A DNA stretch of 56,707 nucleotides, counting the filler, from Dugesia japonica (taxonomy: Eukaryota): assembly GCA_001938525.1 (NCBI GenBank). It is 5 parts of 5 records of this genome, joined end to end, with 100 filler letters (N's around TTAATTAATTAA, not from the genome) between each part and the next. Parts side by side here need not be neighbours in the genome. Positions count along the whole stretch, not along the records: positions 45,998 to 56,707 come from MQRL01609680.1; 4 more parts are not named here. One strand, written 5' to 3'. Numbering within the stretch: position 1 is the stretch's first letter; every line of letters starts with the position of its first letter. The position numbers and the translations under genes are program-made. The notes beneath the pieces are model-generated. The model saw nothing but the letters and a program-made list of their open reading frames with translations, did no database searches and was not told the origin of the DNA. Below are positions 20,088 through 56,707 of this stretch, in pieces.

Positions 20088-20528
20088 TTGATTGCTAATA
20101 TCAATCACAAGAAGAAGGCTTCCAAAGAAATTATAAGTAAAATAAATTTCCAATTGTTAACAAAAGTGGGAGATTAATAATATTCTTTAAAACCGGAAAT
20201 TGTCGAATAATGGGGCTGAAGAAACCTATAGAAATTGATAATTTACAATATGATATTTGTAATTAATTTAGGTGTTCGAGTTAATTTATGAACATTTTCA
20301 AGATTAATCAAGTGTATGTTTGAACCAGAATTGTTTCCATCATTACGATTAACAAACTACATTCCTTTATGTGTGAATGTATTTTCAACCGGAAAAGAAG
20401 TGATACCTGAATTTAAAAATTTACATTATCATGGATATGTTGAAAACATAAATACAGATTTATATAATTTAATTGAAAAAAAAATGATTATAGGTATTAT
20501 ATTTGTTGAATCACCAATTCTTATGTAA
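20088..20528 (+). pseudogene. Divergent TBP-like gene, copy A (frameshifted, partly deleted)
   Basis: IANINH...IIFFKTGNCRIMGLKKP (repeat 1, cf. TBP LIFSSGKMVCTGAK) and MFEPELFPSLRLTNYIPLCVNVFSTGKEVI (repeat 2, cf. TBP YEPELFPGLIYRM..P..VLLIFVSGKVVL). Confidence 0.75.
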
Positions 20529-37114: not shown

Positions 37115-37585
37115 CAATTTAAAATTTTTTCTATCACTTTTTTNCCAATCAAATTTATTAAGTCTGATGGTCTGTTATCCACATCTTCTTGAAAATTCAA
37201 AATTTAAAGTTCAAGTATTACAATTTTTCCCGTTGAGAACACATTTACACATAAAGGATCGTATTTGAAAAGACGTAATTCTGAAAATAACTCCGATTCG
37301 AACCAACAGTTGACTTTTTTTTTCAATTTATATACATTTATTGCAAATCTCATATTTATGACAACTGTTAACGATCGTAGTCATATATTTTTAATATCAT
37401 AAGGGTTAAAATCTCGTGGTTCTAAAGGTTTCTTACACCCCATAATTCGACATTTTCTTGATCTGAAGAATATAATTGTATACTTGTCACTTTTGACTTT
37501 GAATTGACATGGTTTACCTATAGGAAAGCTCATTTTTTGTTACTTCTTTTGTCAAATCACCTCTGTAATTAATATTGGTGATCAT
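37115..37585 (-). pseudogene. Divergent TBP-like gene, copy B (near full length, frameshifts and stops)
   Basis: Reconstructed MITNINYRGDLTKEVTK/MSFPIGKPCQFKVKSDKYTIIFFRSRKCRIMG/KKPLEPRDFNPYDIKNI*LRSLTVVINMRFAINVYKLKKKVNCWFESELFSELRLFKYDPLCVNVFSTGKIVIL. Confidence 0.75.
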
Positions 37586-37708
37586 AATAATAATAATTAA
37601 TAAAATGAAATGAATTTCAGTGGGTGTATTGAGGATTTTCATGATTAATTTAATTGATTCGATAAAACAAATATAAATAATGTACTTATTATGAATAAAT
37701 AAAAAGAA

Positions 37709-38311
37709 ATGGAGAAGTTACGAAGGGATGCAGTTGTAGTGGGAAAACTTGTTTGCATGTAAATTACTGAAATCGAATGTATTCAAGTCGAAATTTAATA
37801 AAATATACTGGCATAGAGGTGCGGTAGTTGATTGGACTGACTTAATTAGAATTTCGTAACATCAAAATGAAGATTATAAACAGATTCGATAAAAATTGGA
37901 GCAAAAAATTGAGGCCTGGTGATGTTTTTTGTTGTTGAGGATCTGTATCAATAGGCAGATAAAGAAAAGGATTTCAATAACTTGTTCTCAAAGATGTCAA
38001 GACATTGTAATGTTACTATGATATTCATTACTCGAAACCTATTTCATCAAGGTGGTAGTCATAGAACACGTAATCTAAACGTACAATACTTGGTTCTATT
38101 TTAAAATCCTAGAGATCAAACAGTTGCTGATTTTCTATCAAGACAGGCTTATCCAAATAATAGGCATTTTCTTATTGAATCATTTGAAGATGCAACAGAT
38201 AAACCGCATGGATATCTATTTCTTGACTTTATACAGCAATGTCCAGATGAATATACAGTGAGAACAGATATTTTAAATCCTAATGGTATAACTATTTAAA
38301 ACAAACTAGGT
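37709..38311 (+). pseudogene. Polinton packaging ATPase (A32/FtsK-like)
   Basis: Walker A GCSCSGKT (37726), Walker B VVEDL, SKMSRHCNVTMIFITRNLF, LVLF*NPRD, DATDKPHGYLFLDF..RTDI. Confidence 0.85.
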
Positions 38312-38331
38312 AATTTTATTCATGTTATAAA

Positions 38332-39255
38332 ATGGGAAGATTTAGGAAATTTATAGTTGATCAACTAGCTGATGGTGATAATAAACAGCAAAAAATGTCT
38401 GTTAGTAAAATAATGAATGTGAAAAAAATTGCATTAGAAGTATTAGTTAAATTCAAAATCTCACAAGTCTCCATAAATATTTTATTGATTATTACAAGTC
38501 TTTTGTTAAAATGAAAAATGATGAAGTCAATTCAAAATATTCAAACAAATAATGTAAGAAATTTTAATAAAATATTTTTCAAAAATATTGATTTTTTAAA
38601 TTCCAAAATACTTTTATTTGACATGTATCTTTAATTATTTTTAAACCTAATTTTATAAAATAAGTTTTATAATTTTATTATTTAACATAATATAAAATAT
38701 CGACTTTAATTTTGACAAGTATATTTAATTATTTTTAAACATAAGTTTACAAAATAGTTTTTATAATTCCATAATTTTGCATAATATAATATATAGAATT
38801 TATTCAATTAAATTGTATTTTAAAAAAACATGTTTTATATTTTAAAAGTTTCAAAAAACAAATTTTAATATTATAAAAAAATTAAATATTTTCAAAATTA
38901 CGAAAATAAACTTAGGCGTAGATCAAAAAAGTTTTAAAAAAATGTTTCTTTTAAAAATTTTTATTAAAATAACAAAACTTTTTAAAAAAACGTTTTTTAT
39001 TTTTTCCAATTTTTCGAATTTATCTTTTTCAGGAATTGTGTTATATATTAATATTAATATTAATATTTTATTAATATTATATATAATTAATATTATATAT
39101 AAAAATTTAAAAATCTCAGATATTTGAAATTCATGAATTGACCTCACAAGAAGCCACTTGTAAATAATAAGAAGCAATTAAATATGTTTAAAAACCTTTC
39201 AAAATGGAACGACAAGAAACTACGAATGAAGAAAAGAAAATGGATATCAATATAA
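38332..39255 (+). pseudogene. Small basic Polinton-associated ORF split by a ~700-bp repeat insertion (38441-39147)
   Basis: MGRFRKFIVDQL...KKIALE before the repeat; KKPLVNNKKQ...KLRMKKRKWISI* after it. Confidence 0.4.
38441..39150. repeat. AT-rich dispersed repeat; Tc1-free paralogue of 25371-27220
   Basis: Collinear alignment of both ends. Confidence 0.8.
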
Positions 39256-39291
39256 ACAATTCACTCATAGGAAAGTATTACTGAAATAAAA

Positions 39292-52118: not shown

Positions 52119-52480
52119 CATATTGGTAAACCATCACAAATTGTTTATAAATGTATGAAGTACACGGTTATTTTCTGTAAATCAGGGATTTATAGAATCA
52201 TATGATGTAAGAAATCAATAGAAATGAACCAATTACAAGATGACATTAAACATATTCCATTGCAATTGTTAGCAATTGTATTCAATTTGAAACAGTCATG
52301 TAATATGCATACATTAACAAAATAGCCAAGTATATGTATGAACCTGAATTTTTTCCAGCGTTGAGGCTTACAAAATATAAACCAGCTTGTGTTAATGTAC
52401 TTTCCAGTGGAAATTTGTAATATTTAGTTTCAAGAATTTATATTATCAAAATCAAATTTAAAGATAAATTTATAGATAAA
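52119..52480 (+). pseudogene. Divergent TBP-like gene, copy C (5' end cut by the Penelope insertion)
   Basis: HIGKPSQIVYKCMKYTVIFCKSGIYRII*CKKSI...YMYEPEFFPALRLTKYKPACVNVLSSG/FVIFSFKNL. Confidence 0.75.
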
Positions 52481-52541: not shown

Positions 52542-52728
52542 TACAGGGTATCCAAAAAGCTACCCATACATAGGTAAACATTTTAGAACTAATCTACAGC
52601 TTCCAGGTGCTTGAATAGGTTGGCGTTGTTATGTGGATTGGCTTCCCAGATCACCCGATCTCGGCCCATTAGATTTTTATCTTAAAAGCAATTTAAAAGT
52701 TATGCTACATCAGGAAAAGATTTAAAAC
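52542..52728 (+). mobile_element. Internally deleted Tc1/mariner fragment
   Basis: TA-CAGGGTATCC end; DWLPRSPDLGPLDFYLKSNLK (WPPRSPDLTPLDFFLWG motif). Confidence 0.7.
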
Positions 52729-53030
52729 CTAAATCCCCTCGAAAAATGAATCACTGACACCATTATAAGTATAACTACAGATGTGCTTAAACATGTTCTT
52801 CAGCAGTGGATAATGCTCATTAAGACGTGTTTCCATAAGAATTGTGGTCATGTAGAGCATGTTATATAAAATAAAGTATTCCCTTTTCCATATGTATGGA
52901 AACTTATGAGAATCCTGTATTTTTATTAATTGCTCAATTTCAATTGAACCAGTACTAGAAATTGACTTGGCTGCTATTCTACGTGAAAAGATTAACAATT
53001 CATGACAATACACTTAATCATAACAATATA
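52729..53030 (-). pseudogene. Hypothetical protein fragment converging on TBP-like copy C
   Basis: 94-aa open frame with non-repetitive composition in very AT-rich DNA; runs into the mariner fragment. Confidence 0.35.
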
Positions 53031-54115
53031 ATAAATAAACTTTTCAAGTAAATTATTTGATTTATTACAATAATTTCATTTATTTTATTTTTATACTGTC
53101 AATGCAAACCATCTGAAATGTGACCAAGCAAAAGATGTATAATAAAGAAAAGTTTTTGTTTTGAAATATATCATGTTTTTATTTTGTTTTTCAATTTTTT
53201 GAATATTGTTTTATTTTTTGTGGGTTACTATTTTATAAATTTGAATTGTTACTGTTATTGTTACCAATAGTGAAATTATAAATTTTAACAATGTAATACT
53301 GTTATATTATGTTTTTCAGTGAAATTAGTTTCTAAAATGTTTCAAAGTAAACCGAAATTTGTATTTTAAAATCTATTTAAAATTAGCAATGTACTCTAAA
53401 AATCATGAATTTAAATTAACATGAAGAAATTTGAAATTTAATTACAACTTTATTTAAAATTAACACGTGAAGGTCAAGTCTGAAAAGGAAGCATTTTTAG
53501 CTATAGGTCCTTTGAGCCATGTATAGGAAACTTTTGATGCTAAATCTAATGGCAACAAATTCAAAGCCAGACAATTAGTTTTGACTGAGAACATTTTAAA
53601 AAAATGTTCAATTGTTTCAGTGAGCTGCACAAATTTCTTGGGAACAAAGCATATTTATATAACAAACCCTATAAAAAAATATATTTAGTATTTAATTCTG
53701 AATCGAATAGTTTCAAAATTCTTTAAGATATATTGTTTTTTAATTATAATTATAACTATTATTATAAGTGTTCTAATGAGTTGCACCCTATTTAACTGTT
53801 GAAGAAGCATTTTTCATTAAAAAGTAAGATAAACTTTATAAACAGTTTTTAATTCAGACTTCAACGATACAAAATTTGAAACCATACTATAAAATTTTGC
53901 CGAAAAAAATTACAACCGAAAATTCAATCTTTCGAGCCAAAAATTTGCCAATAAAATTTGATATTGAAATAACTTTTTACTAAATCGTAATGACCAATTA
54001 AAGTGCTGCAATTTTTAAAACATCACATTTTTAAAACACTTTGTCAACAAGGGGTGGTGTTATGATCTGTTCCTATCTATTTACTACTTATTTACTAGTT
54101 TTAAAGATTTAAATC

Positions 54116-54480: not shown

Positions 54481-56707
54481 AAATAAAATAAAACATTTCA
54501 GAAAATAATATTTCGCTAAAAATATATTAAATAAAAATATAAATAAATTACTTTAATATAATTTTACATTTCTATTTAAACATGATGTTCAATAAACCAA
54601 ATACACATAATAAACTAAATACGTTCATTNNNNNNNNNNNNNNNNNNNNNNNNNNNNNNNNNNNNNNNNNNNNNNNNNNNNNNNNNNNGCTAATAATAAT
54701 AAACTTTATCAAAGCAAATTTACCAATAAATGAAAAAATAGAACGAATATCGGTCCTCCTTAGAAATTTAAATAATGATTATTATTACGTTTATTAAAAA
54801 ACTTTAATAGGTGTTGGTTATCTGTTGTTGAATATTTGTTGTATTTGGATTTAATGATTAAAAATTTTATACAATTTGATTTACAATTATAATAGAAAAC
54901 ATTTTTAAATTTAAACATTTTNTTCGTTCTTAGTTTTATTATTTTCTCGTAAAGAATTTGTTTTTCGATATTAATCTTTCAGGCAATATACCGGTAGTAT
55001 TTTATTCCCTTTCAATTGCTAATTGTATCTATTGAAATTAGTTGAGATCAATGATAATGATAAAATTCGTATTTTCTATGTTGAACTCTTATTTTCTAAC
55101 AATATATCTGAATANNNNNNNNNNNNNNNNNNNNNNNNNNNNNNNNNNNNNNNNNNNNNNNNNNAGCAAGCAATGAACCAAGGAGCAAACAAAGAAGCAG
55201 AAGGATAATTAGACGATTAAAATATACTGAAATAGGTATATTAATTTAAACAAGAAGCAAGCCATATCAACTCTTACTCAGTATCACTCAGTCTTATTGT
55301 TTTTTATCAATAAAGATATTGAAGTGAGGTCTATGAAAACATGAAGTGAAAATATGCATTAAAACCCGATTATAAAATTTTTTAATCGTGTTATTCGTAC
55401 TCACTGTAAAATTTCTGAAAGGATAGCTGTACATATTCGTTAGAAAGAAGTTTTTCCGAGATGATATTTTAACTTTTACAGTCACTTTGAAATGTGAATC
55501 GATAGCTGTCATCTGTACACAGAACGCTGAGTGCTAAAATCAGATTTTTGAGATTTTTAGAGACAAAACATCATTTATTTTATCAAGGATTACTTCTGGC
55601 GATTTAAAGTTAAGAAATTTGGAATCAGCAAAACATTCTTTATAGAATAGACACTTTCTTAACATATTTTGAGAATAAATAAGTTTTTCCAAAAATTCTG
55701 TGCAAAATACTGGGAAAATCAAAAATGATCGCTGTAAAATTCTGAATCGATTTATCCAAAAAAATATCTATATATTGCAAAAAATGAAAAATTATTTTTT
55801 AAATTTTGAAAAAAAANNNNNNNNNNNNNNNNNNNNNNNNNNNNTTTTAAATTTTCATATTATTTAAACAACATAAACGGTTCCCCAAGATTTCACCAAA
55901 ATATTTTAAATTATCTTTTAAAAACTTGAAAATTTAAATAAATTCGACTTTTACCATGAATTTCTTGAAAATTCAACCCAAACTGACCAGACCAAGGAAA
56001 TTATCACTCAAATTCACCTAAAAATATTCCTTGTAAGTTAATAATTTACGATGTTTGTCCAGACATAGTAAATAATTAAATAAATCGCCCAGAAATTAAC
56101 CAACTTAACCATTCATGAGGAAATATTCGACCATATTATCCCAAATCTACCCAAATTAACCATTATCGAGGACAAATTCAATAGAAACGCGCAAGAATTA
56201 CCAAAATTGACAAAACCAAAGGAAACATTCAATCAATTTCGCCTAAGTCAGCCAAAAATTGAACTTATTCGTTCTCACTGTTGAAATTCCAGACAAAACC
56301 ACCTCATTCGACTTCATTGAATAAATTCCCAACCAAGAAGCTTAAAAAAATTTCCAAACAAAAAAGCCTGAAACATATTTCCTGCTTAAAAAACCTAAAA
56401 AAATTTCCCAACTAAAATTCCTATAATTTTAAAATAATTAGCCAAATCTTTTAATCTAATGACATAATTTGTGTGCAAAAAATGTTCCCAACTATCTCCC
56501 AACTCATAATTTTATTGAAATTTCTGATTATAAGTCCACAGGTCTTTCTTCATTTAATCTTTTGTGGCTTGTGTGATTATAACTATGGATTATTTTTGGT
56601 AACACATGTATCCATGTTTTATTACCAGTTTGTACAAAGTACTTTTTCAATGTATCTTTCAATAATCGATTAAATCTTTCAACATATGCTGCTTTTTATT
56701 GTAAAAA

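Follow-up and report, generated by a model that had tools for sequence, protein, structure and literature searches.

The window, that is, the whole stretch of 56,707 nucleotides of Dugesia japonica DNA that was analysed, contains three copies of a TBP-like gene (A, B and C), spread over three different contigs of the joined stretch. The features of the window discussed below are the following.

about 20088-20480, plus strand: copy A, TBP-like gene of subfamily A, on a third contig
37141-37590, minus strand: copy B, TBP-like gene, on a contig separate from those of A and C
39251-39257, plus strand: TATAAAC box ahead of the B-type core gene, at 41 nt from its start
45998-46985, plus strand: left arm of a D-type element
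47033-47319, plus strand: 5' part of the lineage D GNVxL gene, which is distinct from the core gene carried by C-type elements
47320-50586: nested non-autonomous Maverick-type element with the ends AGTAAGTAG...CTACCTACT and a TTTATC target duplication
50587-50672, plus strand: end of the core-protein-like GNVxL gene of lineage D (3' tail as far as 50611), then the 3' flank native to it
50673-50859, no strand given: (ATT)n tract, an original part of the element that bears the GNVxL gene
50860-52115, plus strand: two tandem fragments of a high-copy repeat, abutting the cut 5' end of copy C
52110-52467, plus strand: copy C, the decayed remains of a TBP-like gene from a C-type Polinton, delimited by its match to relatives
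52544-52917, no strand given: short inserted element downstream of copy C, with inverted ends and TA on either flank
52924-53177, plus strand: second remnant of a C-type element, 69-75% identical to L032, L085/L144 and L090/L148

The short element behind copy C is presumably of the Tc1/mariner type. The high-copy repeat in front of copy C (50860-52115) has no Pfam match in three frames; a short motif in it we take to be the GIY-YIG-like tail of a Penelope-type element.

Copy C is a genuine, truncated and frameshifted member of a high-copy Polinton gene. It is cut at both ends, lacking the first ~17 codons as well as the last codons, and carries one in-frame stop at 52203-52205 and two frameshifts, near 52320 and near 52413. 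It is the remnant of a C-type element of which the upstream half is lost. In C-type elements the counterpart of 52924-53177 usually lies ~1.2-1.3 kb downstream of the TBP-like gene, and the two small ORFs normally found in between are missing at copy C. The motifs named in the original prediction, GKPxQ (in B and C), IFxxxxxxRI and ExExFxxLRLxxYxPxCVNVxSxG, are present as quoted, and the strong divergence it noted at the DNA level is borne out by the measured identity of 66-72% among A, B and C.

Searching the genome with copy B, we obtained matches for all 150 candidates that were scored out of 6435 first-look candidates, and many of these relatives have open frames of about 150 codons. Three intact relatives pass the Pfam TBP profile (PF00352) with 40-49 bits and copy B itself with 28.8 bits, the cut-off being 22.9; two single-frame pieces of copy C, searched alone, gave no match to this profile. 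A profile of the family recognises the TBPs in the PDB with an E value of 3e-21. The predicted model of a natural relative (P0009, pLDDT 95) aligns 146 of 151 residues with human TBP 164-337 (Z 13.2, rmsd 2.7), and its first lobe is without the long helix. Judged by sequence, the gene family is homologous to TBP, far above chance, and its protein is predicted to have the two-lobed saddle fold with a shortened first lobe. The family is a wide one, with 37 close proteins and 57 clusters at E<1e-30. Among the more distant members, eight (P0120, P0136, P0150, P0156, P0164, P0167, P0172 and P0174) have an apparently longer first lobe, which suggests that shortening may have been stepwise.

In an unrooted, quickly computed tree, built on one half of those family proteins that are 135-230 aa long, 71 family rows lie on one side of a branch and eight cellular TBPs together with six host TBP pieces on the other (SH-aLRT 100). 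Because the family stands apart from the host pieces, it was not captured recently from this host; an origin from a host TBP paralogue was considered and, given the same separation, found no support. The host genome itself harbours at least six cellular-type TBP pieces (L188-L193), three of which are divergent and nearly intronless.

Compared with cellular TBP (PF00352; PDB 1mp9, 1cdw, 7egb) the family shares the two-lobed saddle, the EPELF loop and three of the four intercalating Phe. In contrast to cellular TBP, its proteins are only about 150 aa long with 21-26% identity, lobe 1 has largely lost its long basic helix, base-contact residues are replaced, and they form a clade separate from the host paralogues. 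In the alignment of 136 family proteins the three retained Phe are found in 130, 135 and 135 sequences, while the fourth is not kept. The two stirrup Glu of the TFIIB-contact loop occur in 123 and 134 of the 136, and three central positions of basic helix 2 of repeat 1 are gaps in 93-128 of them. The base-contact positions occupied by Val, Thr, Leu and Asn are changed, and on the DNA face the changes are near-invariant: Val to Arg in 130, Thr to Met in 134 and Leu to Asn in 135 of 136 proteins. The residue roles and the yeast numbering for the Phe, Glu and base-contact positions in this alignment are our assumption.

The TBP-like family is linked to genes for an rve integrase, an A32 ATPase, a capsid protein and pPolB, although copy C itself is without these neighbours. 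A Polinton hallmark gene is found in 23 of 51 metagenome loci, and in 15 of the 20 loci of at least 3 kb; several of these loci carry ATPase, integrase, capsid, protease-like and pPolB genes together. The capsid label is based on double jelly-roll matches in a fold search; a PDB sequence search with the capsid alignment gave no match. The genes called core, penton, pX, protease, DEDD-like and SSB-like here have no Pfam match, and these names, some of them given by position, are to be taken as our working assumption. No relatives of the TBP-like gene, the capsid or the ATPase were found in a viral contig collection. Terminal inverted repeats with a 6-bp target duplication were seen only for the nested element at 47320-50586, and the examined contigs held no whole TBP-bearing element.

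Some neighbours of the TBP-like gene deserve mention. A conserved ORF of ~115 aa, for which searches found no family and which is the one labelled SSB-like, lies beside it in 18 of 51 environmental loci and also in the own genome, and is duplicated in subfamily C (examples are L094:1788-2135, L021:1052-1318, and L032:1554-1775 and 2011-2229). Several stretches upstream of this ORF resemble a GT-AG intron. Four environmental relatives (L102, L103, L115, L130) carry host-like cargo, namely an E2 ubiquitin-conjugating enzyme, a dual-specificity phosphatase, a RING finger and an LRR protein.

Since three copies offer no internal branch, selection was tested on 89 genomic copies, using pairwise dN/dS counts and a comparison of private with shared changes. 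Copies A, B and C belong to three clades, with support of 99/97 for 25 of the 26 A rows and of 100/100 for each of B and C; the end branch of copy C is long (0.17, median 0.052). Pairwise counts among the three window copies gave dN/dS of 0.42-0.47, and within subfamilies 0.36-0.54, not 1. Between subfamilies the values drop to 0.23-0.29. For B and C the ratio is 0.23 (codon bootstrap 0.14-0.33), or 0.18 net of within-group divergence (0.10-0.29), and so not near 1, with the proviso that the B loci were selected for their protein similarity, a choice that lowers dN. The private changes of copy C are distributed over the codon positions as 107/92/102, the shared ones as 18/9/30 and thus rich in third positions (Fisher p 0.01); the same contrast is seen for copy B (p 0.0004) and copy A (p 0.035), and the private changes of each copy are evenly spread (p 0.23-0.56). 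The TBP-like gene, a Polinton gene, was therefore under long purifying selection before each of the copies decayed, as had been proposed from the pattern of conserved motifs: low dN/dS between subfamilies goes together with neutral private changes. This agrees with the purifying selection reported for Maverick core genes (PMC8097293).

A second part of the original prediction concerned the surroundings of copy C, which was thought to adjoin the GNVxL gene once the insertion at 47320-50586 and the microsatellite block had been removed. The arithmetic holds, as both then lie on the same strand about 60 bp apart. The first block is a true insertion: it has inverted ends and a 6-bp TTTATC duplication, and the empty site is found in the same orientation in 17 of 19 relatives with the GNVxL tail, the tail being inverted in the other two. 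Its end motif and 6-bp duplication were compared with those given in PMC8097293. The element, a non-autonomous Maverick-type one, thus sits within the gene of another Polinton; 31-bp tandem repeats occupy 47466-48116 inside its left end. The second block is a different matter. The (ATT)n tract follows the GNVxL tail in 15 of 17 relatives, and as it is a native part of the GNVxL-bearing element its removal is unjustified. Moreover, a 50-N assembly gap lies inside this tract (50735-50784), between the GNVxL tail and copy C.

The gene order of the relatives is also at odds with the claimed adjacency. In the 29 C-like loci the packaging ATPase is head-to-head with the TBP-like gene in 16 of the 17 that have at least 400 bp upstream, and the GNVxL gene lies beyond the ATPase on the opposite strand in eight of the 29, never on the same strand. 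The B-like loci, 30 including the window's own copy B, give the same picture, with a divergent ATPase in 20 of 23, the GNVxL gene on the opposite strand in eight of 30 and on the same strand in none. In the window, copy B is head-to-head with the packaging ATPase (about 37700-38330), followed by the core gene and then the integrase. Because B-like and C-like loci show the same synteny, B and C share one gene order, and the idea that the order around copy C differs from that of the 36-41 kb element has to be given up. What stands of it is the existence of several subfamilies, A, B and C falling into three; the difference in order belongs to other members, as in subfamily A (L160, L184) the core gene directly faces the TBP-like gene without an intervening ATPase, and further gene orders occur among environmental relatives.

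The GNVxL gene of the window has its own relatives. It is 80-89% identical to family D and 67-76% identical to the core genes of C-type elements, and in a tree it groups with 29 D rows, chosen by likeness to this very gene, in a 30-row clade (98/95), while eight core genes linked to C-type copies form a separate group (100/100). Where the native sequence is intact (four loci of lineage D) the (ATT)n tract is followed by an acidic ORF; after this ORF, the inner end of the left arm recurs as an inverted copy in 14 of 30 D-type loci. TBP-like matches were found in none of these 30 D-type loci and in none of the 29 of a first set, three contigs being common to both sets. The D copy of the window stops at the microsatellite, where the N gap and the two high-copy repeat fragments lie. 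The D arms, the (ATT)n tract, the acidic ORF and the lack of a TBP-like match indicate that lineage D is mostly a small non-autonomous derivative.

That copy C and the GNVxL gene were nevertheless neighbours in one ancestral element, its subfamily having a gene order of its own, is a reading to which we give hardly any credence. It could draw on the shared strand and short distance, on the real insertion at 47320-50586, on the variable gene order of environmental relatives and subfamily A, and on the long end branch of copy C. However, the arrangement does not occur in any of the 59 loci of the B- and C-like types, the genes belong to two distinct lineages, the native neighbours of the GNVxL gene are the (ATT)n tract and the acidic ORF, and the N gap separates the two pieces. 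On synteny, lineage and native neighbours we reject ancestral adjacency; copy C came to lie beside the GNVxL gene by an accident of nesting and deletion. For copy C and this adjacency the meaning is limited to showing how Polinton fragments pile up.

Several observations can be added on lineage D and on the debris around it. The lineage (45998-47319 and 50587-50734 in the window; also L155 and L211) is multi-copy, with long inverted arms around the core-like gene, the (ATT)n tract and the acidic ORF, and this tract is a frequent landing site of other repeats. Further Polinton debris, including subterminal-type repeats, is present at 55041-56707, among it a direct copy of the D arm at 55041-55378 and a C-type integrase piece on the minus strand at 56505-56707.

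In the environmental loci, TATAAAC is the top 7-mer of the regions that precede start codons. It is present within 80 nt of the start in 29 of 40 MCP, ATPase, core, DEDD-like and protease genes, a set that was grouped after the motif was seen (shuffled controls: mean 1.1, max 5), and in only one of 53 TBP-like and SSB-like genes. With the environmental integrase (2/6), penton (1/6) and pX (1/6) genes the total becomes 33 of 58. The mode of its position is 33-39 nt before the start. In the own genome, against a background of 3-4%, the box precedes 26 of 36 ATPase, 11 of 14 core, 16 of 26 MCP and 10 of 10 pX genes and none of 62 TBP-like genes; the exact word is absent before six integrase, four penton and five protease genes, for which start calls are uncertain. 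The rows behind all these counts are not independent, as they are related and some come from a contig already represented. The pattern of a modified TATA box before structural genes and its absence before the TBP-like gene is thus borne out.

A second Polinton clade of the same genome, with a DJR capsid, a PLA2-integrase and an A32 ATPase, has TATAAAC before only one of 85 ORFs. No TBP-family match was found in 30 short loci or in 17 longer stretches (123 kb) of this clade, which is a single lineage represented by stretches rather than whole elements; because the control is fragmentary, its lack of a TBP is not proven.

Copy C itself is a dead fragment of this gene. The intact protein, as far as its sequence and the distribution of the box allow us to say, is likely to bind TATAAAC and in this way to switch on the packaging and capsid genes. 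The TBP-like gene, having no box, would first be read by the host machinery. Its product would then bind TATAAAC through the altered DNA face, and the conserved EPELF loop would bring TFIIB and RNA polymerase II of the host to the particle genes. With the long basic helix of lobe 1 gone, the protein might escape the regulators of host TBP. The residue roles behind the EPELF-TFIIB and the basic-helix steps are presumed by us.

The same residues could also be read differently. With one of the intercalating Phe gone and several base-contact residues lost as well, DNA binding could be weak or absent, and the protein might then occupy host TFIIB/TBP partners, or AT-rich DNA non-specifically, and so damp host transcription, with TATAAAC read by host TBP or another factor. 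The TFIIB-contact loop, being among the best conserved parts, would suit such a decoy, as would the presence of several TBP paralogue pieces in the host; 1qn3 is a TBP complex with a TATA variant, and host TBP can use such variants. However, we consider a decoy unlikely, since the altered residues of the DNA face are near-invariant in 136 proteins and three Phe are kept, since the TBP-like gene itself has no box, and since the box is nearly absent from the Polinton clade in which no TBP was detected.

Less probable still is a role in replication or packaging, at element ends or AT-rich origins, with the box as an unrelated habit of the lineage. The gene does often lie beside the conserved ORF that we provisionally call SSB-like (18/51 loci) and head-to-head with the ATPase. 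KSHV ORF24, a herpesviral TBP mimic, also aids replication (PMC6541308). But several separate genes have TATAAAC on their sense strand, spaced from the start as a promoter element would be, even where this falls within upstream coding sequence, and a replication protein would need no conservation of the TFIIB loop.

A one-protein late-gene switch, working like the TBP mimics of herpesviruses, is in our opinion the best reading by analogy. The mimics of beta- and gamma-herpesviruses act late in infection at TATTWAA promoters (PMC6541308), and KSHV ORF24, EBV BcRF1 and HCMV UL87 resemble the present case in that a viral TBP-fold protein is matched by an altered TATA box ahead of structural genes, a pairing that for the Polintons is proposed here. 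In contrast to these large multidomain proteins, which bind Pol II in a six-protein complex (PMC6541308), the Polinton family consists of a lone TBP core in single-domain frames of about 150 aa and uses another box, and its fold match to BcRF1 is weak (E 0.013). The family would work like the herpesviral mimics but is not one of them. Giant-virus TBP-like proteins (BFVD matches, e.g. Heterosigma akashiwo virus 01) also have the viral TBP fold, but are 16-18% identical at best to the family. Giant viruses with TBP-like proteins encode their own RNA polymerase, a gene of which none was seen in the TBP-bearing Polinton elements.

The elements otherwise agree with known Polintons, Mavericks and adintoviruses in pPolB, rve integrase, A32-type ATPase and double jelly-roll capsid, in the 6-bp target duplication and in purifying selection on the genes of active lineages (PMC8502044; bioRxiv 697771; PMC8097293). 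A TBP label in Polinton-like elements appears in the legend of Fig. 5 of Starrett et al. (PMC8502044; bioRxiv 697771). It concerns elements from non-animal data sets and comes without analysis in section 3.4 or the accessible text (PMC8502044), and the label does not establish kinship with the present family. Neither TBP nor TATA occurs in the available parts of PMC8097293. Apart from this figure label, the literature searched, mostly at the level of titles and listings, contains no Polinton TBP-promoter pair and no TATAAAC promoter.

When capsid genes are switched on in Polintons, which are without an RNA polymerase, is a question that bears on whether these elements are real viruses, and a matched pair of factor and box brings it within reach of tests on a single small protein and a motif of seven bases. 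We incline, by a narrow balance, to the wider proposal suggested by these sequences: a widespread clade of animal-infecting Polintons would make its early-to-late switch through a single TBP of 150 residues, whose altered specificity would let it read TATAAAC and pass promoters on to host TFIIB and Pol II; this would be the smallest viral late-transcription system known. If true, it would provide a natural TBP with a changed sequence preference.

The TBP-like genes have upstream words of their own. In L092-L142, ATCATAATT is enriched just before their start (15/38) and TTGTTTTA further upstream (13/38), and CCAAT-like words are found upstream of some of them.
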